From Crocosphaera subtropica ATCC 51142 (lineage in GTDB: Bacteria; Cyanobacteriota; Cyanobacteriia; Cyanobacteriales; Microcystaceae), in contig NC_010546.1 in assembly GCF_000017845.1 (NCBI RefSeq), forward strand, positions 4,290,001 through 4,322,000: DNA of 32,000 bases, in the 5' to 3' direction. Positions 4,518 through 31,240 of this stretch are shown here, one piece after another. The stretch's first letter is position 1. Every line of letters starts with the position of its first letter. A model generated the notes under the pieces. That model was not told where the DNA came from, ran no database searches, and saw only the letters and a program-made list of their open reading frames with translations. Made by a program: the position numbers and the translations under genes.

Positions 4518-6167
4518 TTATCGAAGGTTTCCTGAACGTATAATACTAACAACTAACCATAATCCTAGCAGACTGGCTGCTGCAAATAAAATATTACTTA
4601 ACCAAAATAATTGTGAACTTTGTGCGCTACTAGAAATATTAGACGCACCCATAATTAAAGAACCAACAATAATACTAAATGCGATCCGATTGGCTGAATT
4701 ATCTAAACTGTAACGGATGGGATCAATATTTCTTAGGTTAACATTCCATTTCAAGGTTTCAGACGTTAAACGATCTAATAATAATTCCATTTGACGGGGC
4801 GATCGCAAGGATAAACTTTTTAAATCTAATGCTGTTCTTAAAAAGGTTTCGATAGGGTTATCCCCTAATAATTGACGACGGAATAAGTCCGTCATTAAAG
4901 GTTTAATTTGGTTAAGTAAATTAACTTCTGGATCAAAAGCCCTAGCTACCCCTTCTAAATTAGCTAACGTTTTAGCATATAATCCCATATTACTCGGTAG
5001 GCGAATGCGGTTATTTCTAGCAACTTGTAAAACCTCATAAAACACTTCGCTAAAGTTGAGTTGAGAAATACTTAAGTTATAATATTTCCGCAACATACTA
5101 TCATAATCGTTTTCTAAACGATCTAAACTCATGGGTTGTCCTGCTTCGGCTAATTCTAATGTTAATTGAGCGCAACGTTGGGCATCAATATCAACGATGG
5201 CCAGTAACATTTCCGTTAAAATTTGTTGAGTTCTCGGATCTAAACGCCCTACCATGCCACAATCTAACAGAGCAACCCGACCATCTTCTAAATAGAATAA
5301 ATTACCCGGATGGGGATCAGCATGGAAAAAGCCATTTAAGTAAATTTGTTGGAAAAAAGCACGAAACAGAAGGGTTGTAATCTCTCTTCTGGGGTTATTC
5401 TCTTGACCTTGAGAGGGTTGATCAGCAATTTTGGCTGCAAGTAAAGGGGTTCCGTCTAACCAGTCTAAAATCAGCAATTTTGGCGTAGTTAACTGCCAAT
5501 GGATTTTAGGGATCACTAATTTTTTGGGGTCAAACCAACGACTTTCAGTAAGGTTTAAACGGAGTTGAGTCGTATATTCAGCCTCCATAGTAAAGTCTAA
5601 TTCTGCTCTGAGAGCATTGGTAAATTCATCGGCGATGGCAACAATATCATAATCATCCCCAAAGTCAGTAAAAGAGACTAATTCGGCAATTCCCTTGATT
5701 AGTTTAATGTCCTGGTCAACCACTGCTTCTATGCCTGGTCTTTGCACTTTTAAAGCTACTTTCTGCCCATTTTTTAAGGTAGCTTGATGCACCTGTGCAA
5801 TGGAACCAGCAGCGATGGGTTTTTGTTTAATCTCTTGGAATATTTCTTGAGAGGGTTGGGGTAATTCTTGTTCTAATAATTGATGAATTTCTGGCCATGA
5901 AACAGGAGGAACATTAGATTGTAATTCCGATAATGCCTCTATATAGTGTTTTGGTAATAAGTCTGGACGAGTGGATAAAAGTTGTCCTAATTTGACATAA
6001 ACAGGTCCTAAATCAATTAGAATATTACATAAAACTTCTGGGGTCGGTAACTGGGGTTCATTGGATTGATTTCCTGTTAGTAATCCCTTCATATAATCCC
6101 ATCCATGATGAAATACTACTTCTAGAATTTCTCTTTGGCGGGATGTATTTTTTGTTAATGATAACAT
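4518..6167 (-). CDS. ABC1/UbiB(AarF)-family atypical kinase with C-terminal TM helices
   Basis: 549 aa. ABC1 hallmarks PIAAGSIAQVHQATLKNGQKVALKVQRPG and FFHADPHPGNL...DCGMVG. Two hydrophobic helices at the C-terminus. Confidence 0.85.
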   Translation of the reverse strand: MLSLTKNTSRQREILEVVFHHGWDYMKGLLTGNQSNEPQLPTPEVLCNILIDLGPVYVKLGQLLSTRPDLLPKHYIEALSELQSNVPPVSWPEIHQLLEQELPQPSQEIFQEIKQKPIAAGSIAQVHQATLKNGQKVALKVQRPGIEAVVDQDIKLIKGIAELVSFTDFGDDYDIVAIADEFTNALRAELDFTMEAEYTTQLRLNLTESRWFDPKKLVIPKIHWQLTTPKLLILDWLDGTPLLAAKIADQPSQGQENNPRREITTLLFRAFFQQIYLNGFFHADPHPGNLFYLEDGRVALLDCGMVGRLDPRTQQILTEMLLAIVDIDAQRCAQLTLELAEAGQPMSLDRLENDYDSMLRKYYNLSISQLNFSEVFYEVLQVARNNRIRLPSNMGLYAKTLANLEGVARAFDPEVNLLNQIKPLMTDLFRRQLLGDNPIETFLRTALDLKSLSLRSPRQMELLLDRLTSETLKWNVNLRNIDPIRYSLDNSANRIAFSIIVGSLIMGASNISSSAQSSQLFWLSNILFAAASLLGLWLVVSIIRSGNLR

Positions 6168-7343: not shown

Positions 7344-8090
7344 TTATTCAACTAATCCAGACCTTAAAGCCCGAACTGCTGCTTGGGTGCGATCATCAAC
7401 GCAGAGTTTATTGAGAATATTACGAACATGGGTTTTAACTGTCCCTACGGTAATACACAATTTTTCTGCAATATCAGCATTGTTACAACCCCCTACGATC
7501 AACTCTAAAACGTCGAATTCACGATCAGTTAAAGGAGAGATTTCAAACAGGTGTTGAGGATCTTCCTCAATGCAAGTTGTCTCCTCAAGTTGAACGGAGT
7601 GGTTATTATTAGATGAATGATTCACTGATACCGAAGAAAGTTCAGCTTTAGCAGTCACTGGTTTTTTGATTTGTTGAAGCACAATATTAGCAATATTCGG
7701 ATCAATCCAAGAATTCCCTTCATGGGTGTTTTTGATCGCTTCGATCAGTTGAGTGAACTCAATGTCTTTGAGTAGATAAGAATCAGCCCCCGCTACAAAG
7801 GCAGCTAACACATCTTTTTCCTGGGTTGTATTCGTCAAAATCAAAATCCGTGTTGAATGGGTATGAGGGTCATTTTTGAGACGTTGGGTGACTTCAATGC
7901 CATCGATATCCGGTAAGTTGAGTGCAACGATCGCCAGGTCAGGGTTTTCTTCCTTGATAATCTTTACTCCTTGATGACCATTAGCTGCTTCTCCTAGCAC
8001 TTCTATTTGTTCAACCTGTTTTAATGCAGCCAATAAACCAACACGGGTCAAATCGTGATCTTCTACCAATACAAGGCTAATTTTACTCAT
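7344..8090 (-). CDS. NarL/LuxR-family response regulator with a pseudo-receiver (phospho-acceptor Asp replaced by Ala)
   Basis: The ORF is open from 8141, but MSKISLVLVEDHD (ATG 8090) fits the usual receiver N-terminus. The receiver aligns to NarL: PDLILLDLNMPGMNG versus PDLAIVALNLPDIDG. C-terminal LuxR HTH: LTDREFDVLELIVGGCNNADIAEKLCITVGTVKTHVRNILNKL. Confidence 0.85.
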   Translation of the reverse strand: MSKISLVLVEDHDLTRVGLLAALKQVEQIEVLGEAANGHQGVKIIKEENPDLAIVALNLPDIDGIEVTQRLKNDPHTHSTRILILTNTTQEKDVLAAFVAGADSYLLKDIEFTQLIEAIKNTHEGNSWIDPNIANIVLQQIKKPVTAKAELSSVSVNHSSNNNHSVQLEETTCIEEDPQHLFEISPLTDREFDVLELIVGGCNNADIAEKLCITVGTVKTHVRNILNKLCVDDRTQAAVRALRSGLVE

Positions 8091-8601
8091 CTTCAATTCA
8101 TTAAATAGATGCAATATGGACAAATACGGCTTTAAGTTCATCCGTCTTTTGAGAGAGGGTTAATTTATATTAAACTCATTTGACAAAGGGGAACTCTAGG
8201 CGAATGTTATAAGAATACCATGAAAAGTCCCACTTTAAGATGAGCATAAACCACTCCTAATCAAGCTTAGTAATAAAGAACAAGAAAACTCAGATTTAGG
8301 CTTAAATTTACACCAAAATGCTTATTTTTTAAAATAATTAGCTAGAACAGATATGACCATATTTTTTCCCTAATTAGTTTTTGAAAAAAATTACCGATCT
8401 TTCTTAAGTGATAGAAGACAATTAACGGTTTTTAGGGGAACCTAACCAACGAAAGATGGTGATAGGGTAACATTTTTGTTCTAATAAAAGTAGGAAGTTT
8501 CAGTTAAGAGTGATTAAATAAACAAATCTTTTTTATCGAAATTTTGTGGTGTGTGATTAGTAATATTAACTGTTTTCCTGAGAACGAGACGGAGGTCATT
8601 T

Positions 8602-9298: not shown

Positions 9299-11119
9299 TT
9301 ATGATTGTCCATAATCAAAGGTTAAAAATTGGGTTGCTTTTTCTACAGAAAGAGGTTTACTAAAATAGTATCCTTGCATGATTTGACAGTGCAAATGATG
9401 TAACGTATTCAGTTGTTGTTCAGTTTCTACGCCTTCGGCGACGACTCTCATCTCAAAACTGTTTCCTAGAAAAATTAGGGCAGCAATTAATGTGGTGTTT
9501 TCAGGGTTTTCTTTTATATTTTTAATTAAAGACACATCAATTTTTATTGTATCAAAGGGCATTTGATGCAAATGATTAACCGCAGCATAACCAATACCAA
9601 AATCATCTAAACAAACCCTAACGCCTAACTTTTTCAATTCTCTTGAAACTTCATAAGCTAGTTTAATATCTTTAAGGATAATTGATTCAGTAATTTCTAA
9701 TTCCAACCATTGTGGATCAAGTCCTGTAGATGTTAACACTTCATCAATAAGATCGACTAATTGAGGATGATGAAATTGGGCTATAGATAAATTGACAGAC
9801 ACTACCACTGAAGATAACTTATTCATCTGCCATATTTTATTGTGTGTACAAGCTTTTTCTAAAATCCAACGAGTTAATGGCACAACTAATTCTGTTTTTT
9901 CTGCCCAAGGTAAAAATTGTTGAGGGGGAATTAAGCCATATTTGGGATGTTTCCAGCGAATAAAGGCTTCCATCGCTTCTATTTTTTTAGCATTGGTATT
10001 GAATTGAGGTTGATAATATAAACATAATTCTTCTTTGGTTAATGCTTCATAAAGTCGCTTTTCGATTTGTGATAATGGAGGATTTGTTTGGTTTAGGTTT
10101 TCCGGGAGAAGGTTATGATTACCTGTTTTTTTATGATTAATTAGTTGGGTTTCTGCATAATTTAAAAGTTCTTGAGGAACTTGTCCATTTTTAGGATAAG
10201 TTGCTATTCCTAAATAAGTGACTAGGACTTGGGTATTTTCTTCAACGATAAAGGGGGATTTTAGTTCTTTAATAATCCGTTGAGTGATTTTATATAAATT
10301 GTCTGCTTCTTTAATATGAGGTAATAAAATAGCAAATTCATCCCCTCCCCAACGAGATACAATATCTCCTGTTCGGATACAATTTTTTAAACGTTGGGCG
10401 ATCACTTGTAAAAAATAATCTCCAATTCTATAACCAAACTTATCATTAATTTGGCTAAAATGTTCAATATCTATCAACAAAACTGCTAAACAATGATTAT
10501 GTCTTTTGGCATTCGTTACGGCAATGGAAATATATTCATTAAAAAGAATACGATTGGGTAATTCGGTCACTGGATCAAGATAAGATTCTTCTGGAAAGGT
10601 ATCATCGTTACCTAAATCGTTAAGGGAAGGACTTTGTAAGATATAAGTAGATTGTTGATTGGGATTACCTAAATATAAGGTTGGTGCTTGATTAATAGCT
10701 TGAGGAGCAGATTGTTCTATTTTTTTACTAATTTGTTTATCAATAAAACTTTCTGAAATTTGAGCAGGAAAAATGGTATGATAACTCCCATTGACTTCAC
10801 AACCAAAATTAATTAAATCCCCATCTTTGAGTTCATGGATTGTACATTTTTCTCCATTAACAAAAATCCCATTTTGACTCTTTTTTCCGTCTAAATCTCC
10901 GTCTAAAATCCAAAAAGCATCTTGATTTGTTTTGCGATTAAATTTTCTAATTAAAGTGGCGTGTTGGCGAGAAACTTGTTTAGAATAAATAATAATAGAA
11001 TTACTAGAATGTCGTCCTAAAGAGTATTTAGACTTTTCTAAGGAAATCGTTCGACGGGAGTTGCTATCTTCAAGAACCAAGATATAACGATGATTGGTGT
11101 TTTTTTTGGTGTCATTCAT
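9299..11119 (-). CDS. FHA-GGDEF-EAL protein (c-di-GMP synthase/phosphodiesterase with phosphothreonine-binding domain)
   Basis: 606 aa. FHA: YSLGRHSSNSIIIYSKQVSRQHATL...KSQNGIFVNG. GGDEF: I-site RTGD five residues before RWGGDEFAILL. EAL domain: EAF in place of EAL (MEAFIRW), with ELEITES, DDFGIGYAA, EGVET and QGYYFSKP. Confidence 0.9.
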   Translation of the reverse strand: MNDTKKNTNHRYILVLEDSNSRRTISLEKSKYSLGRHSSNSIIIYSKQVSRQHATLIRKFNRKTNQDAFWILDGDLDGKKSQNGIFVNGEKCTIHELKDGDLINFGCEVNGSYHTIFPAQISESFIDKQISKKIEQSAPQAINQAPTLYLGNPNQQSTYILQSPSLNDLGNDDTFPEESYLDPVTELPNRILFNEYISIAVTNAKRHNHCLAVLLIDIEHFSQINDKFGYRIGDYFLQVIAQRLKNCIRTGDIVSRWGGDEFAILLPHIKEADNLYKITQRIIKELKSPFIVEENTQVLVTYLGIATYPKNGQVPQELLNYAETQLINHKKTGNHNLLPENLNQTNPPLSQIEKRLYEALTKEELCLYYQPQFNTNAKKIEAMEAFIRWKHPKYGLIPPQQFLPWAEKTELVVPLTRWILEKACTHNKIWQMNKLSSVVVSVNLSIAQFHHPQLVDLIDEVLTSTGLDPQWLELEITESIILKDIKLAYEVSRELKKLGVRVCLDDFGIGYAAVNHLHQMPFDTIKIDVSLIKNIKENPENTTLIAALIFLGNSFEMRVVAEGVETEQQLNTLHHLHCQIMQGYYFSKPLSVEKATQFLTFDYGQS

Positions 11120-11175
11120 GGTTGAATCATCCCTACTTTAATTTGAGTTTAACGTTTATTGTTATCCTTCAATCT

Positions 11176-13275
11176 TTACACCTGACTTAAAAATGTAGTG
11201 GCATCAGCAGGTTTTAGGGGACGACTAAACCAAAATCCTTGAATTTCCTGACAATGCAATCTTTGTAAAAATTCTAATTGTTGTAAGGTTTCTACTCCCT
11301 CGGCGATGACCCTAAGATCGAAGCTTTTTCCTAGGCCAATTATAGCAGAAATGATGGCCGTATTTGCAGGATTATTTTGTAAAGTTTGGATAAAAGATTG
11401 ATCAATTTTTAGGGTAGTGATAGGAAATTTTTGTAAATAGGCCAACGAACAATAGCCGGTTCCAAAATCATCTAAGGAAATTTGTACCCCTATATCTCTT
11501 AATTTTTGTAAGGTTTCTTGGGAAAAATCAATATTTTCCATCATGGCCGTTTCCGTGATTTCTAAGTCTAACAAATGGGGGTCTAATTCTGTTTCTTCTA
11601 AAACTTGAGTAACGATATTAACTAAGTTGGGTTGTTGAAATTGTTTTGTAGATAAATTAACCGCAATAGGAATAGCTGGTAAGCCTTGTTTTTGCCAAGC
11701 TTTATTTTGTTGGCAAGCTGTTTTCAATACCCATAAACTAATCGGAATAATCAAGTCTGTTTTTTCAGCTAAAGGAATTAATCTAAGAGGAGAAACCTGG
11801 CCTAATTCTGGATGATACCATCGCAAAAGAGCCTCCATTCCACTAATTTTATTATTAGTCAATCTTAATTGAGGTTGATAATCTAAAGAAAAGGCTTCTT
11901 CTTCTAAAGCTTTATATAAAAGATTTTCTAACTTTAATAATAAAGAGGCCTTAGAAGTCATTGTTGACCGATAAAAACGGTAATGATTTTTACCTCGTTC
12001 TTTAGCCCGATAAAGGGCTGCATCAGCGTTTTTTAATAAAGTTTCTGTGTCCTCTCCATCTTGAGGATAAATAGCAATTCCAATACTGGTTTTAATATAT
12101 AATTGATGCCCAGAAACTTCAAAAGGTTGTTTAAGATCATCTAGAATCCGTTGTGCTAAATTAATGGTATCTTCTGGCGTATTAATTTGAGGTAATAATA
12201 AGGTAAATTCATCCCCTCCCCAACGAGAGACAACATCGTTATTTCGGACACAGGAACTTAATCGTCGAGCAAAACTTTTGAGTAATTGATCCCCGATTTT
12301 ATGACCCAACGTATCATTAACATTTTTAAAAGAATCTAAATCAAGAAAAAGTAATGCCATTAAATGGTTATTTTGCTTCGCTTTAACTAATGCGATTTCT
12401 AACTTTTCATCAAAATAATTCCGATTGGGTAAATCTGTTAATGTATCATAAAAAGCTCGGTATTCTAGATTTTTTTCAGCCTGTTTTCTAGCCGTAATAT
12501 CAAATAAATAACTTCTAATAAGTTGATGTTCTGATAAATAATGAACGTACTGCTCAAAAATATCAGCACCTATCATAACTTCTCTTAATAATAAATTCCC
12601 TTGAATATTCTGAACTTCTGAAAGTAACCCCGCTAAAACAGGATGTTTTAATTTATCTTGTCCAATGGTTTTAAACTTAATACTAGCTGCTGGATTGAGA
12701 TAAGTTAAATTTCCTGAAAAATCAATTTCAATAATTGGATTAGGACTTAGTTCAGGAAAAGAAGCTAATCGAATCAAATCATCGTGATCTCGCTCTTGTA
12801 AACTCTCATCACTAATCAAGGTTGATTTATTATTATCATCAGCCATCATTGTTTCTATCATTGCTTCCTCCTCTTGTTGTAATTGCCCAGGATCAAGAGG
12901 ATTAAATAAATCAATATCTAAGGATGTAGAAATAATATAATAACTAACCTTGGCTTGAGGACCAAAAATAATGACATCACCATGGTTTAAATTATGAGAG
13001 TCTTTTAACTGCCCATTAATTAATAAACCATTGGTACTGCGATGACCTTCTAAATCTCCATCAATAATGCGATAAGAATAACTATCTAATCGGGGGGTTA
13101 GCTTAACTCGTACAATGGTCGCATGGCGACGAGAAACAACTTGCTCATAAATAACAATATCATTACTCGATTCTCGGCCAACACTATAAGTTGCTTCTTC
13201 TAAAGCAACGATACGTCGGGCTTTTTGGTCTTCAATGACAAGAATATGGCGAAAGGATGATAGGGTGTCCATCAC
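11176..13275 (-). CDS. FHA-PAS-GGDEF-EAL protein
   Basis: 699 aa. FHA: YSVGRESSNDIVIYEQVVSRRHATI...RSTNGLLING. PAS-like: SPNPIIEIDFSGNLTYLNPAASIKF...IRSYLFDITARKQAE. GGDEF: RNND I-site plus RWGGDEFTLLL. EAL: MEALLRW, DLEITET, DDFGTGYCS, EGVET, QGFWFSRP. Confidence 0.9.
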   Translation of the reverse strand: MMDTLSSFRHILVIEDQKARRIVALEEATYSVGRESSNDIVIYEQVVSRRHATIVRVKLTPRLDSYSYRIIDGDLEGHRSTNGLLINGQLKDSHNLNHGDVIIFGPQAKVSYYIISTSLDIDLFNPLDPGQLQQEEEAMIETMMADDNNKSTLISDESLQERDHDDLIRLASFPELSPNPIIEIDFSGNLTYLNPAASIKFKTIGQDKLKHPVLAGLLSEVQNIQGNLLLREVMIGADIFEQYVHYLSEHQLIRSYLFDITARKQAEKNLEYRAFYDTLTDLPNRNYFDEKLEIALVKAKQNNHLMALLFLDLDSFKNVNDTLGHKIGDQLLKSFARRLSSCVRNNDVVSRWGGDEFTLLLPQINTPEDTINLAQRILDDLKQPFEVSGHQLYIKTSIGIAIYPQDGEDTETLLKNADAALYRAKERGKNHYRFYRSTMTSKASLLLKLENLLYKALEEEAFSLDYQPQLRLTNNKISGMEALLRWYHPELGQVSPLRLIPLAEKTDLIIPISLWVLKTACQQNKAWQKQGLPAIPIAVNLSTKQFQQPNLVNIVTQVLEETELDPHLLDLEITETAMMENIDFSQETLQKLRDIGVQISLDDFGTGYCSLAYLQKFPITTLKIDQSFIQTLQNNPANTAIISAIIGLGKSFDLRVIAEGVETLQQLEFLQRLHCQEIQGFWFSRPLKPADATTFLSQV

Positions 13276-13342
13276 AGATACATAAACCAGGGCTATTTTT
13301 ATTGTTCCCAGAAGTTTCTAGAAACTAACCATCTATCATCCC

Positions 13343-15895
13343 TCAAGACATAAAGTTTACAGAATCCATATAATTATTCCTAGTAATTTTGCTGAGGAGT
13401 TCTGTCGCTTCTTTGGTCGGTAGGGGACGACTAAACCAATAGCCTTGAATTTCGGTACAATCGAGATCCTCTAGGATTTTTAGTTGGTCAGAGGTTTCTA
13501 CCCCTTCAGCAACAACACGCAGATTAAACCCCTTGCCGATGGCTAAAATAGCAGCAATTAACCCCAATTCCTCTGAGGTTCCCCGTAAGTCTCGGATGAA
13601 GTCTTGATGAAGTTTTAAGGTACGAAAAGAAAATTGTTTAAGATATCCCAAAGAGGAAAAACCACGGCCAAAATCATCCAAAGCAATGCGAACCCCTAAA
13701 TTTTGAAGGTCTTGTAACGTCTTACGGGCTAAATTCAAATTTTGTCGTAACGTTAACTCTGTTAATTCTAATTCTAACCATTGAGGATCAAGACCAGTTT
13801 CATCGAGAATACTCGCTACGACTGTCGCTAAATGGGGTTGTTGAAATTCCCTGGCAGAAAGGTTAACTGTGACAGGAATTGGAGGTAAACCATCTTTTTG
13901 CCAAGATAGATTTTGTTCACAAGCGGTTTTTAACACCCATTTACTCAAATGTAAAATTAAGTTAGTTTTTGCCGCTAACGGTAAGAATTTTTGGGGCATA
14001 ATCATGCCAAAAGCCGGCGTTTCCCAGCGTAATAAGGCTTCCATCCCCACAATTTTTCCTGTTTTATATTGCAGTTGGGGTTGATAGTAAAGAGAAAATT
14101 GTTTTTTTTCTAACGCTTGATGTAGCAAACTTTCTAGCCGTAATAAAAGTTCGGCTTCTGCGGTTAAATGGGGACTATAAAATTGATAATGGTTTCGTCC
14201 CTGTTCTTTAGTTCGATATAAAGCTGTATCGGCATTTTTCAGTAACCCTTCTGCGTTGTCTCCATCTTGAGGATAAATGGCAATACCAATGCTACATTTT
14301 ATTTGCAGACGATGTTCATCTAAGACAAAGGGACGTTGTAAGGTTTCAAAAATACGTTGAGCTAATTTAACGGTATCTTCCGTATTTTTAATCTGAGGTA
14401 ATAATAAAACAAATTCATCACTTCCCCAACGAGTTACGGTATCCCCTGCACGAATACAAGAACTTAATCTTTCTCCAAAACTTTGTAATACTTTATCACC
14501 CAGAGAATGGCCTAACGTATTATTAATATGAGTGAAGGAATCAATATCAATAAATATCACTGCTAATAAATGTTCATGACGTTGGGCATGGGCTAAAGCT
14601 ACCCCTAATTGTTGCTTAAATAATTCTCGATTGGGTAAATTAGTCAGAGGATCATGAAGCAGTTGATATTGTAATTCTTCTTCTGCTTGTTTGCGGTCAC
14701 GAATATCTCTAACAATTAAACATAAAACTTCTTGTCCTTGATAGGTGGTAAGGCTAATTTTACCAGCAACCGCTAGTAATGAACCATTTTGATGACGATG
14801 AAAAGATTCCCTAATAATATAAGGATTTTCTGGGGTTATTTTTTCTAATTGTTCATTAAAAACATCCCGATTTATTTCTAGTAATTGATAAAGATTACAA
14901 CCAATAATTTCAGCACTACTGTACCCTAATAATTTACAATAAGCTTGGTTGGTTTCAATAATATGTTTTGTATCTGGATTAATAACTAAAATTCCCTCTT
15001 GGGTTTGCTCAAAAAAGAAACGGTAGCGATCTTTTCCTGCCGTTAATTTAAGTTCTCTTTTCCGATATTTTGTGATTTCAAATAAATAACTTCTTAAACA
15101 TTCACTTTCTTTTAAATAATGAATATGTTGTTCAAAAAAACTTTGCTCAAATTGCACTTCTCGTATAAAAGAAGTTCCCTCTGTCGACGTTTTATTGCCA
15201 ATGAGATTTTGCAGAACAGGATGAAAAGATTGTAATTTAATTAAGTCAGGAAACTTGATTTTAGCAGCAGCATTAACATAAGTAATTTGTCCTTGAAAAT
15301 CAACTTCTATAATGGGATTGGGATTAGAATCAGCTAAAGAAGTTTGATTTTTCAACAGTTCTGACCCTTTATTTTTTTTCTGGTTACCAAATGCCATCGT
15401 TTTAGGTTGATCATCATCCTCGTCTTCTAAGAAAATTTCATCAAGGGAGGCAAACTGATCAACAGACGGCAAATCATCTAATTCCAATTCCTTATCAACA
15501 AGTTGACTATCCGAGTCTGACTCTTTTAATAAATCAAGTTCAGAGGAATTAGCGATAATATGATAGTTCGCTTGAGATTGATTACCAAAACGAATTAAAT
15601 CCCCTGGGGCTAAATCGTGGGACAGACAATATTTACCGTTAACAGCAATGCCATTGGTACTTCTTTTTCCCTGTACATTCCCATCAATGATACGATAACA
15701 GGGCTGGTCATTCTTTTGATCATCAATCTTCAACAAAGTGGCATGATGACGAGAAACTTGGCGATCGTATAACAAAATATTACTATGGGGATCACGACCG
15801 ATAGAATAGGTATTATCCGTTAAAGGGACAATACGTCGAGATTTTTGATCGGCGATTACTAACAGGTGGCGGACTTCTGAGGCATTACTCATCAC
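13343..15895 (-). CDS. FHA-PAS-PAS-GGDEF(degenerate GSDEF)-EAL protein
   Basis: 850 aa. FHA: YSIGRDPHSNILLYDRQVSRHHATL...RSTNGIAVNG. Acidic linker. PAS-like 1: NPNPIIEVDFQGQITYVNAAAKIKF. PAS 2: RYRFFFEQTQEGILVINPDTKHIIETNQAYCKLLGYSSAEIIG. GGDEF domain has an RAGD I-site and RWGSDEF. EAL: MEALLRW, ELELTEL, DDFGRGFSS, EGVET, QGYWFSRP. Confidence 0.9.
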   Translation of the reverse strand: MMSNASEVRHLLVIADQKSRRIVPLTDNTYSIGRDPHSNILLYDRQVSRHHATLLKIDDQKNDQPCYRIIDGNVQGKRSTNGIAVNGKYCLSHDLAPGDLIRFGNQSQANYHIIANSSELDLLKESDSDSQLVDKELELDDLPSVDQFASLDEIFLEDEDDDQPKTMAFGNQKKNKGSELLKNQTSLADSNPNPIIEVDFQGQITYVNAAAKIKFPDLIKLQSFHPVLQNLIGNKTSTEGTSFIREVQFEQSFFEQHIHYLKESECLRSYLFEITKYRKRELKLTAGKDRYRFFFEQTQEGILVINPDTKHIIETNQAYCKLLGYSSAEIIGCNLYQLLEINRDVFNEQLEKITPENPYIIRESFHRHQNGSLLAVAGKISLTTYQGQEVLCLIVRDIRDRKQAEEELQYQLLHDPLTNLPNRELFKQQLGVALAHAQRHEHLLAVIFIDIDSFTHINNTLGHSLGDKVLQSFGERLSSCIRAGDTVTRWGSDEFVLLLPQIKNTEDTVKLAQRIFETLQRPFVLDEHRLQIKCSIGIAIYPQDGDNAEGLLKNADTALYRTKEQGRNHYQFYSPHLTAEAELLLRLESLLHQALEKKQFSLYYQPQLQYKTGKIVGMEALLRWETPAFGMIMPQKFLPLAAKTNLILHLSKWVLKTACEQNLSWQKDGLPPIPVTVNLSAREFQQPHLATVVASILDETGLDPQWLELELTELTLRQNLNLARKTLQDLQNLGVRIALDDFGRGFSSLGYLKQFSFRTLKLHQDFIRDLRGTSEELGLIAAILAIGKGFNLRVVAEGVETSDQLKILEDLDCTEIQGYWFSRPLPTKEATELLSKITRNNYMDSVNFMS

Positions 15896-16060
15896 AGTTT
15901 ATCGAGAGTAAAGTTTATATTTATAACATTCCCGAAAACCTCAGTAAAATTAACATAATTCTCAAGAAGGTGTTTTTCAATCTCTTTGACCGAGAAGAAA
16001 GACCATAAAGGTTAAGCGTATAATGACAAGAACATTATCTATCTGTGGGGAGGACATTCT

Positions 16061-16813
16061 ATGAATTCAACTCAAAGCGATCTCAAAGAGAACCGCTTCG
16101 CGGTGCGCCAAATCCCAAAACACGTTGATAAAATCTCCTTTGGAATCGCAAGTGTCTACTTCTTATTAGTATTAATGTGGGTATTTACTGAAATATCTGA
16201 CCAGGAAAAAGAAAAATCTCAAAAAGTCACTCCATCTGCTGCTGATGCTCAATTTATCGCTTATCTACAACAGTCTTTAAATGTTCTTAACCAACCAGCA
16301 ACGGAAAAAACCTTAGTTAATCCCGAAGATAAACAATCCTCTACCGTAGCGATTAATCCCCCTTCCCCTCCTACCCAACAAAAGGTAATAGAACGGGTTT
16401 ATGTGCCAATGTACCCGCCCAATCAGTCCAATTCAGCCCCTTCTAGCCTACAACCCCCTTCCCCTTCGAGCAATAGCAATAATAATCTTCCTCCCGCCCC
16501 TCCTTTTCCTGCTGCTACGTCTAAACCTTCGAGTGTTCCTGTGTTAACCCCCAACCAAAACACCTTTTCCGTTTCCCCAGACATTGCAGCTAATAGTCAA
16601 CTGCCCCAAGATGCCGGCCATCAGTTAGTTGGAGTTTTGGAGTCAGGACAACAATCAACCGCTATTTTTACGTTTAATGGGATTAGTCGACGCTTTGAAA
16701 TTGGAGAAGCAGTAGGCAATAGTGGGGGTATTCTCATGGGAGTGCAAAATCAAAAAGCCATTGTCTATCACAATGGTCAAACTAAACACATCGAAGTGGG
16801 ACAAGCCTTTTAA
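16061..16813 (+). CDS. Single-pass membrane protein with a Pro/Ser-rich linker and a C-terminal beta-domain (PilP/GspC-like by eye)
   Basis: 250 aa. SD GGGGAGGA upstream, and a TATAAT at 16019-16024. TM: ISFGIASVYFLLVLMWVF. Long P/S/N-rich spacer. C-terminus: LVGVLESGQQSTAIFTFNGISRRFEIGEAVGNSGGILMGVQNQKAIVYHNGQTKHIEVG. Confidence 0.7.
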   Translation: MNSTQSDLKENRFAVRQIPKHVDKISFGIASVYFLLVLMWVFTEISDQEKEKSQKVTPSAADAQFIAYLQQSLNVLNQPATEKTLVNPEDKQSSTVAINPPSPPTQQKVIERVYVPMYPPNQSNSAPSSLQPPSPSSNSNNNLPPAPPFPAATSKPSSVPVLTPNQNTFSVSPDIAANSQLPQDAGHQLVGVLESGQQSTAIFTFNGISRRFEIGEAVGNSGGILMGVQNQKAIVYHNGQTKHIEVGQAF

Positions 16814-16842
16814 CTTAGAGTTTAGAATTTATTAATTGCTGT

Positions 16843-17415
16843 ATGAGTATTTTTGATGATTTCAGTCGCTTTCTAGAAACACGATTAGAGGAATTTTTGA
16901 AAAATAATCCTCATCTAGAATTGCAGGCCCTTTTAGAACAATTGAGAGAACAAGAACAAGAAGCTCTAAAACTAATTATTGAAAAAGAAGGACAAAAAAA
17001 GCGTTTAGAGACTGAAATTCTTTCCTTAGCTGAAGAAATCCAAAGTTGGCATCAACGAGTGGCAAAAGCTCAAGCTGCTGGACGCTTAGATTTAGCCCAA
17101 AGAGCGCAAGAAAGAGAAGCTGCTCTCTTGCGTCAAGGTAATCAATTATGGGGTCAAATGGAAGCAGCTAAACAACAAATTGCTAACGGGAAAACCCTAT
17201 TAACTCAAATTCGACAGCGAAAAGAAGAAATTCAGACCAAAGCAAGGCAGGCTCAAGCTGCTCAAGCTGCTCAAACTCAAGCCAATTATGATACAAAAGG
17301 ATGGAATCAAACCATTAATTATAGTGTCTACAATAAGGCGACTGATCCCCTAGAAGCAGAGTTCCAAAGGTGGGAGTTAGACGATGAGTTAGATCAATTA
17401 AAACGGAATCTTTAA
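16843..17415 (+). CDS. Short PspA/IM30(Vipp1)-like coiled-coil protein
   Basis: 190 aa, starting 29 nt after the previous gene. The N-terminus MSIFDDFSRFLE resembles the PspA/Vipp1 start M-G-(I/L)-F-(D/S)-R. Continuous heptad coiled coil. The C-terminal DDELDQLKRNL resembles the Vipp1 tail DQELDDLRRRL. Family call is by eye only. Confidence 0.6.
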   Translation: MSIFDDFSRFLETRLEEFLKNNPHLELQALLEQLREQEQEALKLIIEKEGQKKRLETEILSLAEEIQSWHQRVAKAQAAGRLDLAQRAQEREAALLRQGNQLWGQMEAAKQQIANGKTLLTQIRQRKEEIQTKARQAQAAQAAQTQANYDTKGWNQTINYSVYNKATDPLEAEFQRWELDDELDQLKRNL

Positions 17416-18074: not shown

Positions 18075-18773
18075 CTATTCCGTTAAGCCATGTTTTAAAG
18101 CAAAACGAACTAACTCCGTGCGACTATTTGTCCCTGTTTTACTAAACAAACGACTGACATATTTTTCTACATTTCTCACACTTGTCTCTAAACGTGCTGC
18201 AATTTCTTTATTCATTAAACCTTCTGCAACCAAGTCTAAAACACTTTGTTCTCTTGGAGTTAAATCAATTTTGATGGGGGATGGAGTCGTGGTTAAAGTG
18301 TTTTGTTGTTGTCCAAGTTGTTGTTTTAATTCTCGAATTTCCTGGGCGATTTCTTCTAATTTTGCCGAGTCAGTAGCGGTTTTTTCATTGGTTTTGCGAC
18401 GTTCTAATAAATTCTTAACAATTGCTTCTAATTCTTCAGGATCAAAGGGTTTCGGTAAATAAGCATCACAACCAGAATTATAACCCTTAATGCGATCAGA
18501 GGTCATTCCCCTAGCGGTTAAGAAAATAACAGGAATTCCCTGAAAACGGGGGTCATCTCGTAACTTTTCTAAGAACTGATAACCATCTACTTCTGGCATC
18601 ATAATATCAGAAATAATCACATCAGGTGTTATTTTTTCTAATATTCTCCAAGCATCAGTTGCATTACTTGCAACTTTAACCGTTAAATCTCCGCTATATT
18701 CTAAATAAGCTTGTACCGATTCTCTAACACTCGGTTCATCATCAACTAATAATATTGTTGCAGAATCACTCAT
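18075..18773 (-). CDS. NarL/LuxR-family response regulator (canonical receiver)
   Basis: 232 aa. Receiver with LLVDDEP, acceptor PDVIISDIMMPEVDG, FLTARG and YLPKPF. LuxR HTH: LTPREQSVLDLVAEGLMNKEIAARLETSVRNVEKYVSRLFSKTG. No adjacent histidine kinase. Confidence 0.9.
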   Translation of the reverse strand: MSDSATILLVDDEPSVRESVQAYLEYSGDLTVKVASNATDAWRILEKITPDVIISDIMMPEVDGYQFLEKLRDDPRFQGIPVIFLTARGMTSDRIKGYNSGCDAYLPKPFDPEELEAIVKNLLERRKTNEKTATDSAKLEEIAQEIRELKQQLGQQQNTLTTTPSPIKIDLTPREQSVLDLVAEGLMNKEIAARLETSVRNVEKYVSRLFSKTGTNSRTELVRFALKHGLTE

Positions 18774-22454: not shown

Positions 22455-23717
22455 TTAAAATCTAAAGTTATTGTTCCCACCACCGTCAAAGTTTCTATTA
22501 GGTAACCCAATAATAAAGTTGCTAAAGCCTAACAAATCTCGAATAGGCTGAGTAATGACTCGGAAGGCTGCTAAAACCTTACCTAATAGGGTTCGACTGA
22601 CAACAATCACATCTTCATTTTGTAGGGTAACATATTGAGTCACATCGAGATTTTCTACCGTCTTAATGGGATTCAACCCTTGTGTTACCACTTTACCCTG
22701 TTCAGGATCAAATCTTAGTAACGTTACTTCTTCTTTGGTGATCAAAGGAATACTTGGGGGTAAAGCGGCCACTGCATCGACAAAGGTACTCCCATTGGGA
22801 AGGGTGATATTGCGAACAGCTAAGCCAATGGGAGCAGTGGGTACTAAGACACGAACGATAATGGTCGGTTGTGCTAAATTGGTTTTAGAAATTAAGGTTC
22901 GATCATAGTCTTTTTGTCCTGCATCTAGCTTAGAAACGATAATTGTATCCCCTCCCTGTAAGCGAAATGAGGGTAAACGAGTTCCTTCGATTAAGGGACT
23001 ATACAAATCAACCCGTTCTTCGAGTACGGTGCCATCTACTAGAGGACGACGAACAATAATGGATCGTAAGTCTGCTTCGGGGGTACTACCACCAACTCCT
23101 GTGATCACATTATTCAAGGTGATCCCTGGGGCAAAAAAGTAATATCCAGGACGACTGACTTCCCCTAAAATCGTCAACTGTACCGGACGAGGTCCTGAGA
23201 GAACCGCAATAACTTCGGGGGGTTCTTGTAAATAACGCTGTCCTAATTCGTAAGCCACTTTTGTTTCTACTTCATCTAGAGTCAGTCCCACAATAGAGAT
23301 TTGTCCCAAAAAGGGAACACGAATTTTGCCTTCAGGATCGATCGCTCCTACAAAGCTAAATTCATCAAAGTCAAGAACCGTTACACTAATGGCATCCCCA
23401 ATGGCTAAACGATAGAGATTAAACTGTTCTGAGGTTCTGACATCGAATAAAGGAGGTCGTTTAGTACCTGGGGGAATATCTTCATCTCGGAAAGTTGTCG
23501 GAGGAGACTCCTGAACTTCCACAGGTTCGAGGGGTTGTTGTTGAACGTCTTGAGCGATACTAGCGGGGGTTAATAACCCTTGAATTAAACTCCAACCTAA
23601 AAGACCTTGGGAACAACTGTAAAATATCGAAGCGAACAAAGGTAACCTCAATATTGTTTTTCGGGCTTGCTGAGATCCCTTTTGACGATTTACCATTGTT
23701 TTCCTCACACCACACAC
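22455..23717 (-). CDS. Wza/KpsD-like polysaccharide export protein (Poly_export + SLBB domains)
   Basis: 420 aa. Signal-peptide-like N-terminus; the start could instead be MVNRQ at 23696. Poly_export-type segment YRLAIGDAISVTVLDFDEFSFVGAIDPEGKIRVPFLGQISIVGLTLDEVETKVAYEL. SLBB-like repeats (ILGEVSRPGYYFFAPGITLNNVI; RLQGGDTIIV; LQNEDVIVV). C-terminal ...NNFRF with a terminal Phe, as in outer-membrane proteins. Confidence 0.85.
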   Translation of the reverse strand: MCGVRKTMVNRQKGSQQARKTILRLPLFASIFYSCSQGLLGWSLIQGLLTPASIAQDVQQQPLEPVEVQESPPTTFRDEDIPPGTKRPPLFDVRTSEQFNLYRLAIGDAISVTVLDFDEFSFVGAIDPEGKIRVPFLGQISIVGLTLDEVETKVAYELGQRYLQEPPEVIAVLSGPRPVQLTILGEVSRPGYYFFAPGITLNNVITGVGGSTPEADLRSIIVRRPLVDGTVLEERVDLYSPLIEGTRLPSFRLQGGDTIIVSKLDAGQKDYDRTLISKTNLAQPTIIVRVLVPTAPIGLAVRNITLPNGSTFVDAVAALPPSIPLITKEEVTLLRFDPEQGKVVTQGLNPIKTVENLDVTQYVTLQNEDVIVVSRTLLGKVLAAFRVITQPIRDLLGFSNFIIGLPNRNFDGGGNNNFRF

Positions 23718-23787: not shown

Positions 23788-24312
23788 TTAAAAGCCAAAG
23801 TCGCCCATACCCATCGGTGGCACTAAACGATCAACATCTAAAATAAAGACAGTTAATAATTGATCGTTTTCTTGTACTCTAGTAACGTGACTGGCAATTT
23901 CTAACGTATCCCCACGACGATAAGAGTCCGGTAAGGTGCGAATCTGGCTCAGAGGTACATCAAACATTGAAGGGGTTTGAGAGACTAAAATACCAAACAA
24001 TTCATCCGTGGTATTTTTTGCCAAGATCAGAAACTGTCGCCCCTGCATGGGTGATTGAGACACTTTAAAAAGGCGTTTATGGAGATCAATGGCCGTGATT
24101 TCCATTTCATCCATATGAATGAGTCCCACCGCCGTTGTGCCACTCCCTTCCATGGGGGTGTAATGAGTAATCTTTTTGACCGATTCTACCGGCAAAGCTA
24201 AATGAAGGGTTCCTGTTTGAAAAACTAATAATTTACGACGACGGGTTGCTTGTGATTCTAAATCAGGGTCAACAGTCGCTGTGTAATAAGAAGTTGTTTT
24301 TGTAGTCATCAT
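23788..24312 (-). CDS. CheW-like coupling protein, located downstream of cheA
   Basis: 174 aa. CheW-domain pattern: KLLVFQTGTLHLALPVESVKKITHYTPMEG...AVGLIHMDEMEITAIDLHKRL...FLILAKN...FGILVSQTPSMFDVPLSQIR. Confidence 0.8.
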   Translation of the reverse strand: MMTTKTTSYYTATVDPDLESQATRRRKLLVFQTGTLHLALPVESVKKITHYTPMEGSGTTAVGLIHMDEMEITAIDLHKRLFKVSQSPMQGRQFLILAKNTTDELFGILVSQTPSMFDVPLSQIRTLPDSYRRGDTLEIASHVTRVQENDQLLTVFILDVDRLVPPMGMGDFGF

Positions 24313-24382: not shown

Positions 24383-27300
24383 TTAACTGGTAATCATATT
24401 TTTAATAGTTTCTAGGAATTGTTGTTCAATATAGGGTTTGGTAAAGTAAGCATTCGCCCCTAAATGGGTCGCTAACTGACGGTGTTTTTCACTGCTACGG
24501 GAGGTTAACATAGCCACAGGAATTGCCATTAATTTAGGATCACGACGACGTTGTCCAAGAAATTCAAATCCGTTCATATTGGGCATTTCCACATCACAAA
24601 TGACCAGTTGAATGCCTGGATGTTGTTGCAGTTGTTCTAGGGCTTCTCGCCCGTCTCTAGCCTGTAATACCCGATACCCTGATTTTTGTAAGGTTAAGGC
24701 TAAGGTCCGTCTTAAAGCTGCTGAGTCATCCACCACTAGAACGGTGGGATTTTGTAGCACTGAGGTCGGGGTAGAAGATTCCTCCCTAGCAGTTTCTACT
24801 GTAACACCAGCAGCTTTTTCGGAAGCCTCATAGGATTCTAAACATTCATCCAGTAAAATAGTGCCATTGACCACAGGAATTAAGGTTCCATCCCCCAAAA
24901 TAGTACAACCATAGATGTAAGTAGGGGCTGCTATAGCTTTACCGAAGGGTTTAATCACTAATTCTTGTTCGGTCACCAAACGATTCACTTCCAAAGCGTA
25001 TAAACGCTCCTTTCGCCGTAAAATCAGCAAAGGTGAACCCCAATTATCAGGGGTAGCAATGCCCTGAAGGGACTGAGAGGTAAAGCCTTCAGGACAAGGA
25101 CTCTTATACTCAAGCAAATGTTGAATGGGATAAATGGGAATAATGTGTTTTTGCCAAGCTAGAAACCGTTGTTCTCCTGATGTTTTAATTTGTTCTGGTT
25201 CTGGCATAATAATTTCTTCAATGCTATCGGAGGGGAGAGCAATGGCCGATCCTTGATGAGAATTATCTTGTTGAATCAAACAGACTAATAGTTTCGCAAT
25301 AGTGAGAGTTAGAGGCAAACGGAGGGTAAAAGTCGTTCCTTGGCCAGAAATAGAACTCACCGAAACCGTTCCTTTTAAAGCTCGTAATTGTTCTCTAACG
25401 ACATCTAAACCAACCCCACGACCAGAGAGTTCGCTAACTTTACTGGCCGTAGAAAATCCAGGTTCAAAAATAAGATCCTGTAGTGCTTCTTTTGTCATCA
25501 CAGTTACCTGTTCTGGGGTCACTAACCCTGCTTCAACTGCTTTTTTGGCAATTTTCTCCAAATCTAAGCCTCCACCGTCGTCGTGCATTTCAATGATGGT
25601 TTGGTTACCTTGGTGATAAGCCTGAATTTCAATTTGTCCTTGTTCTGGTTTACCCAACTTGCGACGAATTTCTGGGGGTTCAATTCCATGATCAAAGCCA
25701 TTTCTCAAAAGATGTTGTAGAGGATCATATAATTTTTCTAAGGCTGCTTTATCGACTAAAACTGAGCTTCCAGTCAGCTTCAATTTGACCAATTTATGAT
25801 ACTTATTAGATAGATCCCGTAAGACTCTAGGAAAACGATTTAAGACTTCTCCTAACGGTAACATTCTCGCCCACATTAATTCATCTCGAAGATTGGTGAG
25901 CATCTGTCGTTGTTGTTCTAAGGTTTGATTAGAGGAGCGGGCAAACAAAACGATATCATCCACTGATTCCTCTAATTGCATCATTTCTTCGAGTAAAGTC
26001 TGCACAATAGAATAAACGGTGCCATAGGAATCCATTTCCAAAGAATCGAAATCAGTAGATTCTGAAGAAGTAGAAAAAGGAGAGCGAGTAAAAGGATTTT
26101 GTTGATTTAAAGAATTAGTATTAACTTTTATAGCTCCATAACGTTCAGGAGCAATCACCATTTGATCCGATAATTGTTTAAGGGTGTCTGTAATTTTTTG
26201 GAAATGGGAAAATCGATAAATTAAGTCTTTGACCTTGTTTTGTAATTGATCATTTTGTAGAGATAAACTATTACGATTAATCACTAATTCCCCTACTAAA
26301 TTATTCATTCTTTCTAGTCGGTTAAAATCAACCCTAACCGAGAGAAGTGCAGCAGTTTTTTGTGTCTCTGAGGCTTCTTGTTGACTGACACTTCGGGTTC
26401 CTGGGCGACTTCTAGACGAACGAGTCGAACGAGTACCATGAAAATCTTGTTGGACAGTTTCACGGGATACTGGTTTGGGTGAAACTGAAGGATCATGCTC
26501 TTGTTCAACTGTCGGTAAGCTTTCAAAAATATCTTCAACTGAGCCAACAAAAGTATCAAGATTTTCTTGAATTTCTGTTTCATTAATTTCTAAGGATACT
26601 GGTTCTTCTGTAGGGGTTTCTACCTTACCAAACAGATCATCGAGAGAAGTGGCAAAAGGCACGTCCTCAATTGATTTAGATTGATCCTCAAAAGGTTCTC
26701 CAAAAACATCATCTAAAGCAGGAACCCCCTCCCAGTTGGGTTCTTCTTGTTCTTCTCCCGTTGACCCAAAAATATCATCCAATGGAGGTGTGTTGCTAAA
26801 ATCTAGGGTAGTAGCAGCCATTGGCTCCTGACTCAGAGAAGCCTCATCAGAGAACATCAATGGAGTGGCTTCCTCCTCTTGTGTATCTTGGAACAGATCA
26901 TCTAGGGAGAGAATAGAAGGGTCTTCTTGGGTCGGTTCTGAGGATGGTGCTGTTATTTCCAGTGTATTTCCATTAGCAAGATTTAATAAGTCTGGAGAGG
27001 GTTGACCCCCCGACGTGCGATCGCCTTCGACTAACACTAAATGCTGACTCTGTTTTAAATCCTTCAAGGTTAGCTGAGCAATGGTTATCGCCTCTGAAGG
27101 AGACTGTTCGAGGGCTTGTAGGGTGGTTTCGACAATCTCCCCAAACCCTGGTAAGCCAAGGAGTTCAGCAAATCCATTAAACACTTCCCCTTGATTACGC
27201 AAGGTTTGAGTAATTTGTTCATTATCTCCAGAAGCCAAAGCCGTTTCAATTTCTGCTAACCCCTGAGCTACATCTACTTCAAACAACGAAGAAACAATAT

Positions 27301-30800: not shown

Positions 30801-31240
30801 TTTTTTAAGATAGATTGTAGTTGAGTACGAATTTCAGGGGATAAAGACTGTCCTTGACTAGCAGTTTTGCTGGCTTCAATAATGGTAGGGTCTTCGGCTT
30901 CAGAGGCAAAGCCTAAAGCCATGATCTCTAAATCCCTACTATAATTAAATTCGGTAACTGCTAATTGAGACTTGGTTTGATACAGTCCATAAGAGCGCAA
31001 ACTACCCACTAAGGAAGTTGAGCCTAACCCCATTAATCCTCCTAAAGCCAGAAAAGTTAAGGCGGTAATCATCTGAGTTTTGCGACGGATCGGCAAGTTA
31101 TAAAACTGCTCAATCAGGGGTAATTTGGAGGAGGAAGGTGGGTTAGACGTGGGTAGGGTCTTAGAGGGTAAGTCAGAAGAAGGGGATGGAGAAACCCTAG
31201 AAGAAGAAGAGTTAGAAACTGGCTTGACAGGGGTTTGCAT
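27851..31240 (-). CDS. PixJ/TaxD1-like methyl-accepting chemotaxis protein: 2 TM with periplasmic domain, HAMP, GAF, DXCF-type GAF (putative cyanobacteriochrome), MCP signalling domain
   Basis: 1129 aa. TM1 at about 57-80 and TM2 at about 362-388. HAMP: [23 protein letters not shown]...[15 protein letters not shown]1 lacks the bilin Cys residues. GAF2 has DPCF (Cys693) and NPCY (Cys721). MCP hairpin: [31 protein letters not shown]. Confidence 0.9.

Follow-up and report, generated by a model that had tools for sequence, protein, structure and literature searches.

The three genes and their domains

The window analysed here is a stretch of 32,000 nucleotides from Crocosphaera subtropica (Cyanothece) ATCC 51142 (contig NC_010546.1, positions 4,290,001 to 4,322,000). 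It contains three consecutive genes, all on the reverse (-) strand together with every feature of theirs given below, which encode proteins with an N-terminal FHA domain and C-terminal GGDEF and EAL domains for the turnover of cyclic di-GMP (c-di-GMP). Gene A (13343..15895, 850 aa), an orthologue of slr1102, encodes an FHA domain, a threonine-bearing tether, a compact PAS domain, a canonical PAS domain, a GSDEF-type domain and an EAL domain. Gene B (11176..13275, 699 aa), identical to cce_4176 and an orthologue of slr1103, has the order FHA, threonine tether, compact PAS, GGDEF and EAL. Gene C (9299..11119, 606 aa), in third position like slr1104, has a short threonine tether between FHA and GGDEF-EAL and is devoid of PAS. 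The new point is the conserved threonine motif in the tether after each FHA domain, which is phosphorylated in a Synechocystis orthologue.

The positions of the open reading frames (ORFs) and the Pfam matches to FHA, GGDEF and EAL in A, B and C agree with the original prediction, made from the sequence without database searches, of three same-strand genes of these lengths with a common FHA-(PAS)n-GGDEF-EAL architecture. In A (15887-15895) and B (13267-13275) a GTG start codon is directly followed by ATG, so the true start is probably the ATG and these proteins one residue shorter. The genes are separated by 67 nt (A/B) and 56 nt (B/C), and a hairpin scan found no terminator-like hairpin in either gap. 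Since the genes share a strand, with short hairpin-free gaps and an order that is kept in other genomes, A, B and C probably form one operon, as had been suggested earlier. Two sigma-70-like consensus matches upstream of A (15952..16029, reverse strand) are a candidate operon promoter, although the number of promoter-like matches (37, against 27.9+-5.2 in shuffles) is within about two standard deviations of the background and makes this weak evidence.

FHA domains are phosphothreonine-specific. Those of A (15584..15808, residues 30-104), B (12961..13188, residues 30-105) and C (10802..11026, residues 32-106) match Pfam PF00498 with E-values of 7.9e-14, 3.6e-14 and 1.2e-15, their scores of 52.3, 53.4 and 58.1 bits being far above the curated cut-off of 20.7 bits, and the earlier FHA assignment thus stands up to a hidden Markov model check. 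The signatures SIGRD/SRHHA/STNG, SVGRE/SRRHA/STNG and SLGRH/SRQHA/SQNG read earlier in A, B and C, respectively, are present, and with them the phosphate contacts GR (beta3-4 loop), SxxH (beta4-5 loop) and NG (beta6-7 loop). The residue preceding the Asn of NG is Thr in A and B and Gln, His or Arg in clade C, in which the replacement of STNG is clade-wide. AlphaFold2 models the domain of B as a beta-sandwich, with a predicted local distance difference test score (pLDDT) of 64-84 per 10-residue block. FHA profile matches in the PDB include 3hx1 (E 5.7e-30) and also Rv1747, Dun1 and GarA/OdhI. The first of these is the FHA domain of Slr1951, a structural genomics entry of the same subtype as the trio, with the signature YRIIDGD-x-x-G-x-x-S-x-NG; this structure covers the isolated domain, with no ligand or function.

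An FHA alignment was scanned against one genome per species, which gave 284 relatives; the best 79 loci are all cyanobacterial by content, and Nostocales are not represented among the 80 loci kept. Residue counts cover 110 proteins of three clades named after the window genes (36 A, 38 B, 36 C). GR, SxxH and NG are intact in 108 of these (A 36/36, B 38/38, C 34/36), making the phosphothreonine-binding residues the best-kept functional feature of the family, ahead of the catalytic residues of EAL. The FHA domains of A, B and C are predicted phosphothreonine readers.

The spacer between FHA and GGDEF measures about 299 residues in clade A, 155 in clade B and 62 in clade C, and it is here that the proteins differ in their PAS content. 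Pfam PAS is above threshold only once, in the canonical PAS of A (14696..15028, residues 290-400; 47 bits against a cut-off of 22.6, E 2.9e-12; TIGR00229 E 1.4e-21). The segment containing NPNPIIE, which the original prediction had found in both A and B, is indeed common to them (hhalign probability 100%, E 3e-44) and lies at 15053..15340 in A (residues ~186-281) and, with its flanking helices, at 12475..12789 in B (residues 163-267). In B it scores 13 bits against Pfam PAS (E 0.1, sub-threshold), 17 of 19 orthologous segments give sub-threshold PAS matches, hhalign relates it poorly to canonical PAS (E 0.002, probability 15%) and a PDB profile search reaches E 0.8. With all three comparisons this weak, identification as PAS from sequence alone was rejected and structure prediction was needed. 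The AlphaFold2 model of B residues 150-272 has a core pLDDT >90 and a beta-beta-alpha-alpha-alpha-beta-beta-beta order between two helices, with a five-stranded antiparallel sheet, and in a Foldseek search of the PDB all 50 matches listed are PAS, LOV or PYP (best E 2.6e-5). By its modelled fold the NPNPIIE segment is a compact PAS domain, and the PAS counts of 2, 1 and 0 proposed earlier hold once AlphaFold2 and Foldseek are added to Pfam.

The GGDEF domains of A (14189..14659, residues 413-569), B (11983..12456, residues 274-431) and C (10118..10582, residues 180-334) match PF00990 with E-values of 1e-46 to 1e-58 (155-195 bits), and the EAL domains of A (13424..14125, residues 591-824), B (11218..11919, residues 453-686) and C (9353..10060, residues 354-589) match PF00563 with 1e-66 to 1e-71 (223-240 bits). 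Cyclases were judged by GG[DE]EF together with the equivalents of D327, N335, D344, K442 and R446 (PleD numbering). B carries GGDEF, an RNND I-site and the whole residue set, with Lys at R446, and is by sequence the only canonical cyclase of the three. A has GSDEF in place of the motif and keeps an RAGD I-site and the GTP-binding residues, and C keeps GGDEF and RTGD and has Asn at R446, whose equivalent is absent in 35 of the 36 clade C members. The EAL domains were judged by E175, N233, E265, E268, D295, K316 and E352 (RocR numbering; PMC2952852), and all seven Mg/catalytic residues are present in A, B and C, the last of which has the EAF variant of the motif. Of the recognition residues R179, D296 and D318, B (aligned with 5m3c) and C have all three; A has His at D318, where KLH replaces KID, a variant common to most Crocosphaera A proteins listed. 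The Asp equivalent to D318 is a substrate-recognition residue and not a catalytic one (PMC2952852).

Across the orthologues the seven EAL catalytic residues are intact in 92 of 110 (A 31/36, B 32/38, C 29/36). The GGDEF active site is often degenerate (intact in A 7/36, B 21/38, C 17/36), and the RxxD I-site, five residues upstream of GGDEF, is kept in A 33/36, B 24/38 and C 36/36. The I-site is thus retained far more often than the active site, most clearly in clade C (36/36 against 17/36), which suggests that GGDEF domains of the degenerate kind bind c-di-GMP and have a regulatory role. From these residues A is predicted to be a phosphodiesterase with a regulatory GGDEF-like domain, and C a weakened or regulatory cyclase. 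GSDEF was also considered as an active cyclase motif; no support for this was found, and precedents point to inactivity. SesB of Thermosynechococcus (GSDEF-EAL) shares the GSDEF of A and, as it is cited in PMC13571940, is an active phosphodiesterase without cyclase activity, and PdeA of Caulobacter (GEDEF-EAL) is described in the same citing text as having a degenerate domain that binds GTP and activates EAL. Their inputs differ from the FHA of the trio, being a cyanobacteriochrome GAF/REC in SesB and PAS in PdeA.

The tether threonine and its phosphorylation

Behind the FHA domain comes an acidic linker with little conservation: averaged over its columns, the most frequent residue accounts for 0.44 of the sequences in clade B and 0.34 in clade C, and AlphaFold2 predicts the tether to be disordered (pLDDT <50). 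Nevertheless, one threonine within it stands out. In gene A the motif is T166-M-A-F (15389..15400), in an acidic disordered linker; in B it is K150-S151-T152-L-I (12814..12828), a predicted phospho-acceptor homologous to pS146/pT147 of Slr1103; and in C it is D-D-T174-F-P (10592..10606), about 6 residues ahead of the GGDEF domain. The clade B motif, K-S-T-[LIMA]-[IV], has the Thr in 38/38 proteins and the clade C motif, [DE]-[DE]-T-[FIL], in 36/36, and in each of these two clades the Thr is the sole linker column with at least 90% conservation. Clade A linkers contain Thr followed by two hydrophobic residues in 31 of 36 cases, compared with 8.7+-2.7 in shuffled linkers.

Phosphorylation at this position has been recorded in Synechocystis by Spät et al. 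in 2015, who found the Slr1103 peptide STIINEQEQEASR (residues 146-158) phosphorylated on S146 (localisation 0.98) or T147 (0.97) (PMC4379935). Phosphorylation of this peptide increased 2- to 6-fold under nitrogen starvation in most listed comparisons (PMC4379935, supplementary file 6). In addition, pT424 of Slr1102, just ahead of GGDEF, was up to 7-fold higher under nitrogen starvation; the authors classed Slr1102 and Slr1103 as adenylyl/guanylyl cyclases, and neither FHA nor c-di-GMP was discussed (PMC4379935). A further Slr1103 site, pS60, sits in a loop of the FHA domain (PMC4379935, supplementary file 6). A phosphopeptide of Slr1102 turned up once more in work from 2023 (PMC10651672), the peptide mass reported there being, by our calculation, that of the pT424 peptide plus two heavy dimethyl labels. 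The Slr1103 site was not recovered in the supplements of PMC7466104, PMC10243305 and PMC10651672.

To place these sites on the window proteins, Synechocystis salina and loci of Synechocystis metagenome-assembled genomes (MAGs) were used as proxies for PCC 6803 (L015, L016 and L026). In S. salina and a related genome STIIN occurs at residue 146 of the B-clade protein and ETLANQALYDP at residue 423/424 of the A-clade protein. It follows that Slr1103 is of B type and Slr1102 of A type, and that the Slr1103 site corresponds to S151/T152 of B. The original prediction had proposed that protein phosphorylation is routed into c-di-GMP turnover, and the phosphosites found in vivo on the Synechocystis orthologues support this. 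Its statement that the input is unknown has to be corrected, as the trio itself carries a conserved tether threonine motif that is phosphorylated in the B orthologue.

Evolution, the shared cassette and the genomic neighbourhood

The ORF and hidden Markov model analysis recovered A (~830-880 aa), B (~700 aa) and C (~600-630 aa) in the same order across Chroococcales genera. Such arrays occur in Crocosphaera species, Cyanothece BG0011, Synechocystis salina, Synechocystis MAGs, Merismopediaceae and Snowella, and also in Hydrococcus, Pleurocapsa, Chroococcus, Aphanothece hegewaldii and Gloeothece PCC 7424. A neighbour-joining tree of the catalytic core resolves three orthologue clades which equal the position in the array, with bootstrap values of 99.5% (A), 69.5% (B) and 97.5% (C). 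The GGDEF-EAL cores of the window proteins share 55% identity for A/B and 43% for A/C and B/C, and full-length orthologues of B in Crocosphaera, Rippkaea, Aphanothece, Gloeothece, Hydrococcus, Chroococcus, Chroococcopsis and Pannus share 57-90%. Because orthologues from different genera are closer to each other than array neighbours are (the latter compared over the core only), and because clade equals array position, the duplication that gave A, B and C is ancient, which corrects the local duplication proposed earlier; a recent origin in place is rejected.

In some genomes the locus consists of B and C alone. Three such genomes have an A-clade gene on another contig (L021 with L077, L022 with L081 and L024 with L074) and thus retain the whole trio in spite of the broken array. 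In Crocosphaera watsonii WH 8501 (L008:6694-10001) the A/B gap is about 3.3 kb, compared with 50-200 nt elsewhere, and may contain an insertion. FHA and GGDEF-EAL lie on separate ORFs in L031, L041, L044 and L067, which can be frameshifts, pseudogenes or MAG assembly errors. A second type of three-gene FHA-GGDEF-EAL array (~820, ~855 and ~710 aa) is present in Geminocystis, Gomphosphaeria and Prochloraceae (L039, L040, L041, L043, L044, L046 and L052). In its first two genes the GGDEF active sites are fully degenerate and RxxD is kept (16/16), and in its third gene GGDEF is canonical and RxxD absent.

The trio could also be seen as largely redundant phosphodiesterases regulated by PAS, with FHA serving for dimerisation or as a scaffold independently of phosphorylation and the conserved Thr playing a structural part. 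The good conservation of the EAL residues fits this, as does the finding that in Anabaena 14 of 16 single mutants of c-di-GMP enzymes had no heterocyst-frequency phenotype (PMC8682488). However, it is exactly the phosphate contacts of FHA that are kept invariant, phosphorylation of the motif region occurs in vivo and is regulated, and the predicted disorder of the tether makes a structural role for a single Thr unlikely. Moreover, the separation of the three clades is older than the divergence of the genera and holds even where the genes are spread over different contigs, a pattern that speaks against simple redundancy. We consider this explanation improbable.

The N-terminal arrangement extends beyond the trio. 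All fetched proteins with the trio's FHA subtype, except those of clade C, have FHA followed by the Thr motif and by a compact PAS with the sequence LASFPEL(S/T)PNPI. Clade C has lost the compact PAS, which is ancestral to this cassette. The stepwise loss of PAS modules proposed earlier is in this respect correct for C; for the second PAS, gain in A and loss in B are both compatible with the data. The cassette also heads histidine kinases of the FHA-GAF-HisKA-HATPase and FHA-PAS-PAS-HisKA-HATPase types. Examples come from Acaryochloris, Thermosynechococcaceae and others (L054:9983-12118, L069:2084-4198, L047:10013-12079 and L075:9998-12736), and about 20 further loci have similar cassette-headed histidine kinases. 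An exhaustive profile search (E <= 1e-30) gave 178 clusters at 50% identity, with a complete cassette in 101 representatives. The outputs of these are GGDEF plus EAL in 34, GGDEF only in 11, a short tail in 11 and others in 45, the last group including at least 30 histidine kinases (13 with a receiver, 10 with Hpt) and one nucleotide cyclase. That histidine kinases and a cyclase carry the cassette as well speaks for an input module complete in itself.

The neighbours of the array are not conserved with it. Its flanks are wholly different in Gloeothece PCC 7424 and Rippkaea PCC 8801, and a BLAST search of all window ORFs against 81 loci found no conserved neighbour, the matches of neighbouring genes being within Crocosphaera only. 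The conserved unit is consequently the trio alone. The array is flanked by two response regulators of the NarL/LuxR type, neither of them next to a histidine kinase; the position of the first (7344-8141) is conserved only within Crocosphaera, and the second (18075-18773) has matches in 12 loci (5 non-Crocosphaera), which is not surprising in a common family. Two plus-strand ORFs divergent from A (16061-17415) encode a proline-rich protein of 250 aa with one predicted hydrophobic segment and a coiled-coil-like protein of 190 aa; they have no Pfam match and no Rippkaea counterpart and are conserved only within Crocosphaera.

A PixJ-type cluster (GAF-MCP, CheA and CheW) does begin 7.9 kb from gene A, as noted earlier. 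Its CheW (23788-24312), CheA-REC (24383-27772) and HAMP-GAF-GAF-MCP (27851-31240) genes share a strand with a polysaccharide export gene of the Wza/SLBB type (22455-23717) immediately downstream of them, so that a chemotaxis-like cluster is paired with a polysaccharide secretion gene. If the array were an accessory output or input of this cluster, it would control phototaxis. The GAF-HAMP-MCP, CheA-REC and CheW genes are 7.9-15 kb away and on the same strand as the array, c-di-GMP affects phototaxis in Synechocystis and Thermosynechococcus (PMC10124867), and an MCP homologue occurs near one Gomphosphaeria array (L039). However, genes for an adenosine deaminase, a glycosyltransferase, a release factor and the Wza-like exporter intervene, the flanks in Gloeothece PCC 7424 and Rippkaea PCC 8801 are unrelated and no window neighbour is conserved outside Crocosphaera. 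The flank comparison reached 10 kb, short of the cluster itself. The link to motility made in the original prediction therefore finds no support in synteny, and we regard a role as a phototaxis accessory as very improbable.

As stated earlier, there is no Hanks-type kinase or PP2C phosphatase in the window, here among the 23 scanned ORFs of at least 100 aa. The sole kinase-like match in the window is an ABC1/UbiB-type atypical kinase (4518-6167), with nothing connecting it to the FHA domains. A regular-expression and Pfam screen found Hanks kinases near arrays only sporadically. Some occur within a few kb of cassette genes (L069:9116-10630, L064:4147-6174 and L012:15985-18093), with the architectures Pkinase-GUN4, Pkinase-SH3 and Pkinase, one of them lying 2 kb downstream of gene C in Crocosphaera sp. 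XPORK-15E.

These kinases bring in the possibility of an external partner, in which the FHA domains would read phosphothreonine on a Hanks kinase or on one of its substrates (for example a pilus, motility or envelope protein) and thereby bring the enzymes to one place or activate them there, for local c-di-GMP signalling. Phosphorylation of the tether would be a by-product of closeness to the kinase. This alternative comes near to the original prediction. Many FHA proteins elsewhere in bacteria bind phosphothreonine in the activation loop or juxtamembrane segment of kinases. The FHA binding residues intact in 108 of the 110 proteins, the lack of a predicted cis docking and the Hanks kinases near a few related loci (L012, L064 and L069) are in keeping with such a partner. 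It leaves unexplained, however, the invariant Thr in an otherwise unconserved tether, which is found also in the histidine kinase members of the cassette, and no partner gene is conserved beside the array. An external partner is accordingly possible, but on the unlikely side.

Proposed signalling and comparison with known systems

The reading that we favour, with moderate confidence, is that A, B and C are an ancient trio of cytoplasmic c-di-GMP turnover enzymes gated by phosphorylation of the tether threonine. A Hanks-type Ser/Thr kinase encoded elsewhere would phosphorylate the Thr, and an FHA domain of the same family would bind it. This FHA could belong to the same chain, in cis as in GarA/OdhI, or to another subunit or paralogue, in trans as in Rv1747 and Chk2. 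Binding would reset the dimer geometry needed for GGDEF and EAL activity. The main conserved output would be hydrolysis of c-di-GMP, all three EAL domains being catalytically intact by their residues, and the two, one or no PAS domains would add separate inputs, so that a single phosphorylation signal could have a different effect on each enzyme. The most promising candidate for the cue is nitrogen status, because of the phosphorylation dynamics of Slr1102 and Slr1103 and the timing of the phenotype of the Anabaena enzyme CdgSH (described below).

Several points weigh against this reading. Of the two Slr1103 spectra, one localises the phosphate to the Ser that precedes the invariant Thr, and the residues that follow the Thr differ between the clades, so a single FHA specificity is not obvious. 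The pT424 site of Slr1102 is confined to the Synechocystis lineage, and the literature holds no reported phosphosite for a C-type protein or for any Crocosphaera protein. AlphaFold2 did not dock the unphosphorylated motif on the FHA domain (pLDDT 32-36, residues 141-160), a result that is uninformative for the phosphorylated state. Neither a kinase nor a phosphatase gene shows genetic linkage to the array. The enzyme activities of A, B and C are predictions from motifs. The architecture, the orthology, the conserved residues, the phosphorylation of the B-type motif in Synechocystis cells and the bifunctionality of CdgSH with its dominant phosphodiesterase activity are observed facts; we infer the reading of the tether Thr by FHA, together with its effect on activity, the co-transcription of the trio as an operon, the kinase and the physiological cue.

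A wider version of the same idea can be put forward tentatively, although we think it rather doubtful. Here the whole cassette would be a phospho-switch, written by a Hanks kinase and read by its own FHA domain, in cis or across subunits, and the trio would form hetero-oligomers through phosphothreonine-FHA contacts for the nitrogen-gated control of c-di-GMP. A phosphodiesterase-only, a bifunctional and an I-site-regulated enzyme may then divide the labour within the trio. In cyanobacteria the cassette heads at least three kinds of output (GGDEF-EAL, histidine kinase and nucleotide cyclase).

The proposed gating by the tether threonine links a conserved three-gene array and an invariant residue to published phosphoproteomic data that had never been tied to c-di-GMP signalling. 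It provides a concrete model of how Hanks-type kinase signalling could enter c-di-GMP control and, through the same cassette, two-component signalling. For the physiology, the hypothesis moves away from phototaxis and towards nitrogen status, a matter of relevance to a unicellular nitrogen fixer. FHA is a recurring partner of cyanobacterial c-di-GMP enzymes, and the trio, the phosphosite and the cassette make its role testable.

By homology the trio is the Crocosphaera counterpart of slr1102-slr1103-slr1104 of Synechocystis, which are likewise consecutive and of the same architecture order (FHA-PAS-PAS, FHA-X, FHA-X). In the S. salina orthologues, the sequences of the phosphopeptides of Slr1102 (A clade) and Slr1103 (B clade) are found under identical residue numbers. 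The two lineages differ in their cyclase sites: in the Synechocystis lineage (L015, L016, L026) the GGDEF A-sites of all three proteins are degenerate, whereas Crocosphaera has a canonical site in B and retains the GGDEF motif in C. The Synechocystis genes are tabulated without function in Table 1 of the review by Enomoto, Wallner and Wilde (2023), where most such proteins have no known function (PMC10124867), and no functional work on slr1102-1104 or cce_4175-4177 was found in the papers searched. The original claim that such an array lacks functional characterisation is thus right in that the trio has no assigned function, but the array had already been tabulated (PMC10124867), and among related enzymes CdgSH is a characterised example (PMC8682488). 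In Microcystis FHA-GGDEF-EAL is the only hybrid enzyme, present in 23 of 24 genomes (PMC7063779).

CdgSH (All1175) of Anabaena sp. PCC 7120, with the architecture FHA-PAS-GAF-GGDEF-EAL, is the nearest characterised enzyme (PMC8682488). Like the trio it has an N-terminal FHA domain, PAS and a GGDEF-EAL tandem with an RxxD I-site; unlike the trio it has a GAF domain and is encoded by a single gene rather than an array (PMC8682488). It is bifunctional with dominant phosphodiesterase activity and feedback through the I-site, and its phenotype becomes visible when nitrogen deprivation sets in (PMC8682488).

For the switch itself the likeness is to GarA/OdhI of Actinobacteria and to Rv1747 of M. tuberculosis, and it concerns the proposed mechanism only. 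GarA/OdhI combine FHA with a flexible segment that carries a kinase-targeted Thr and acts as an off-switch in cis, and in Rv1747 the FHA domain reads a kinase-targeted Thr in trans and drives oligomerisation. Their outputs differ from those of the trio, being inhibition of metabolic enzymes and an ABC transporter, respectively, and in GarA/OdhI the Thr is N-terminal. The trio would share with the GarA/OdhI or Rv1747 type a kinase-targeted Thr in a flexible segment attached to FHA: its Thr is invariant, its tether is predicted to be disordered and Slr1103 is phosphorylated in vivo at S146 or T147.

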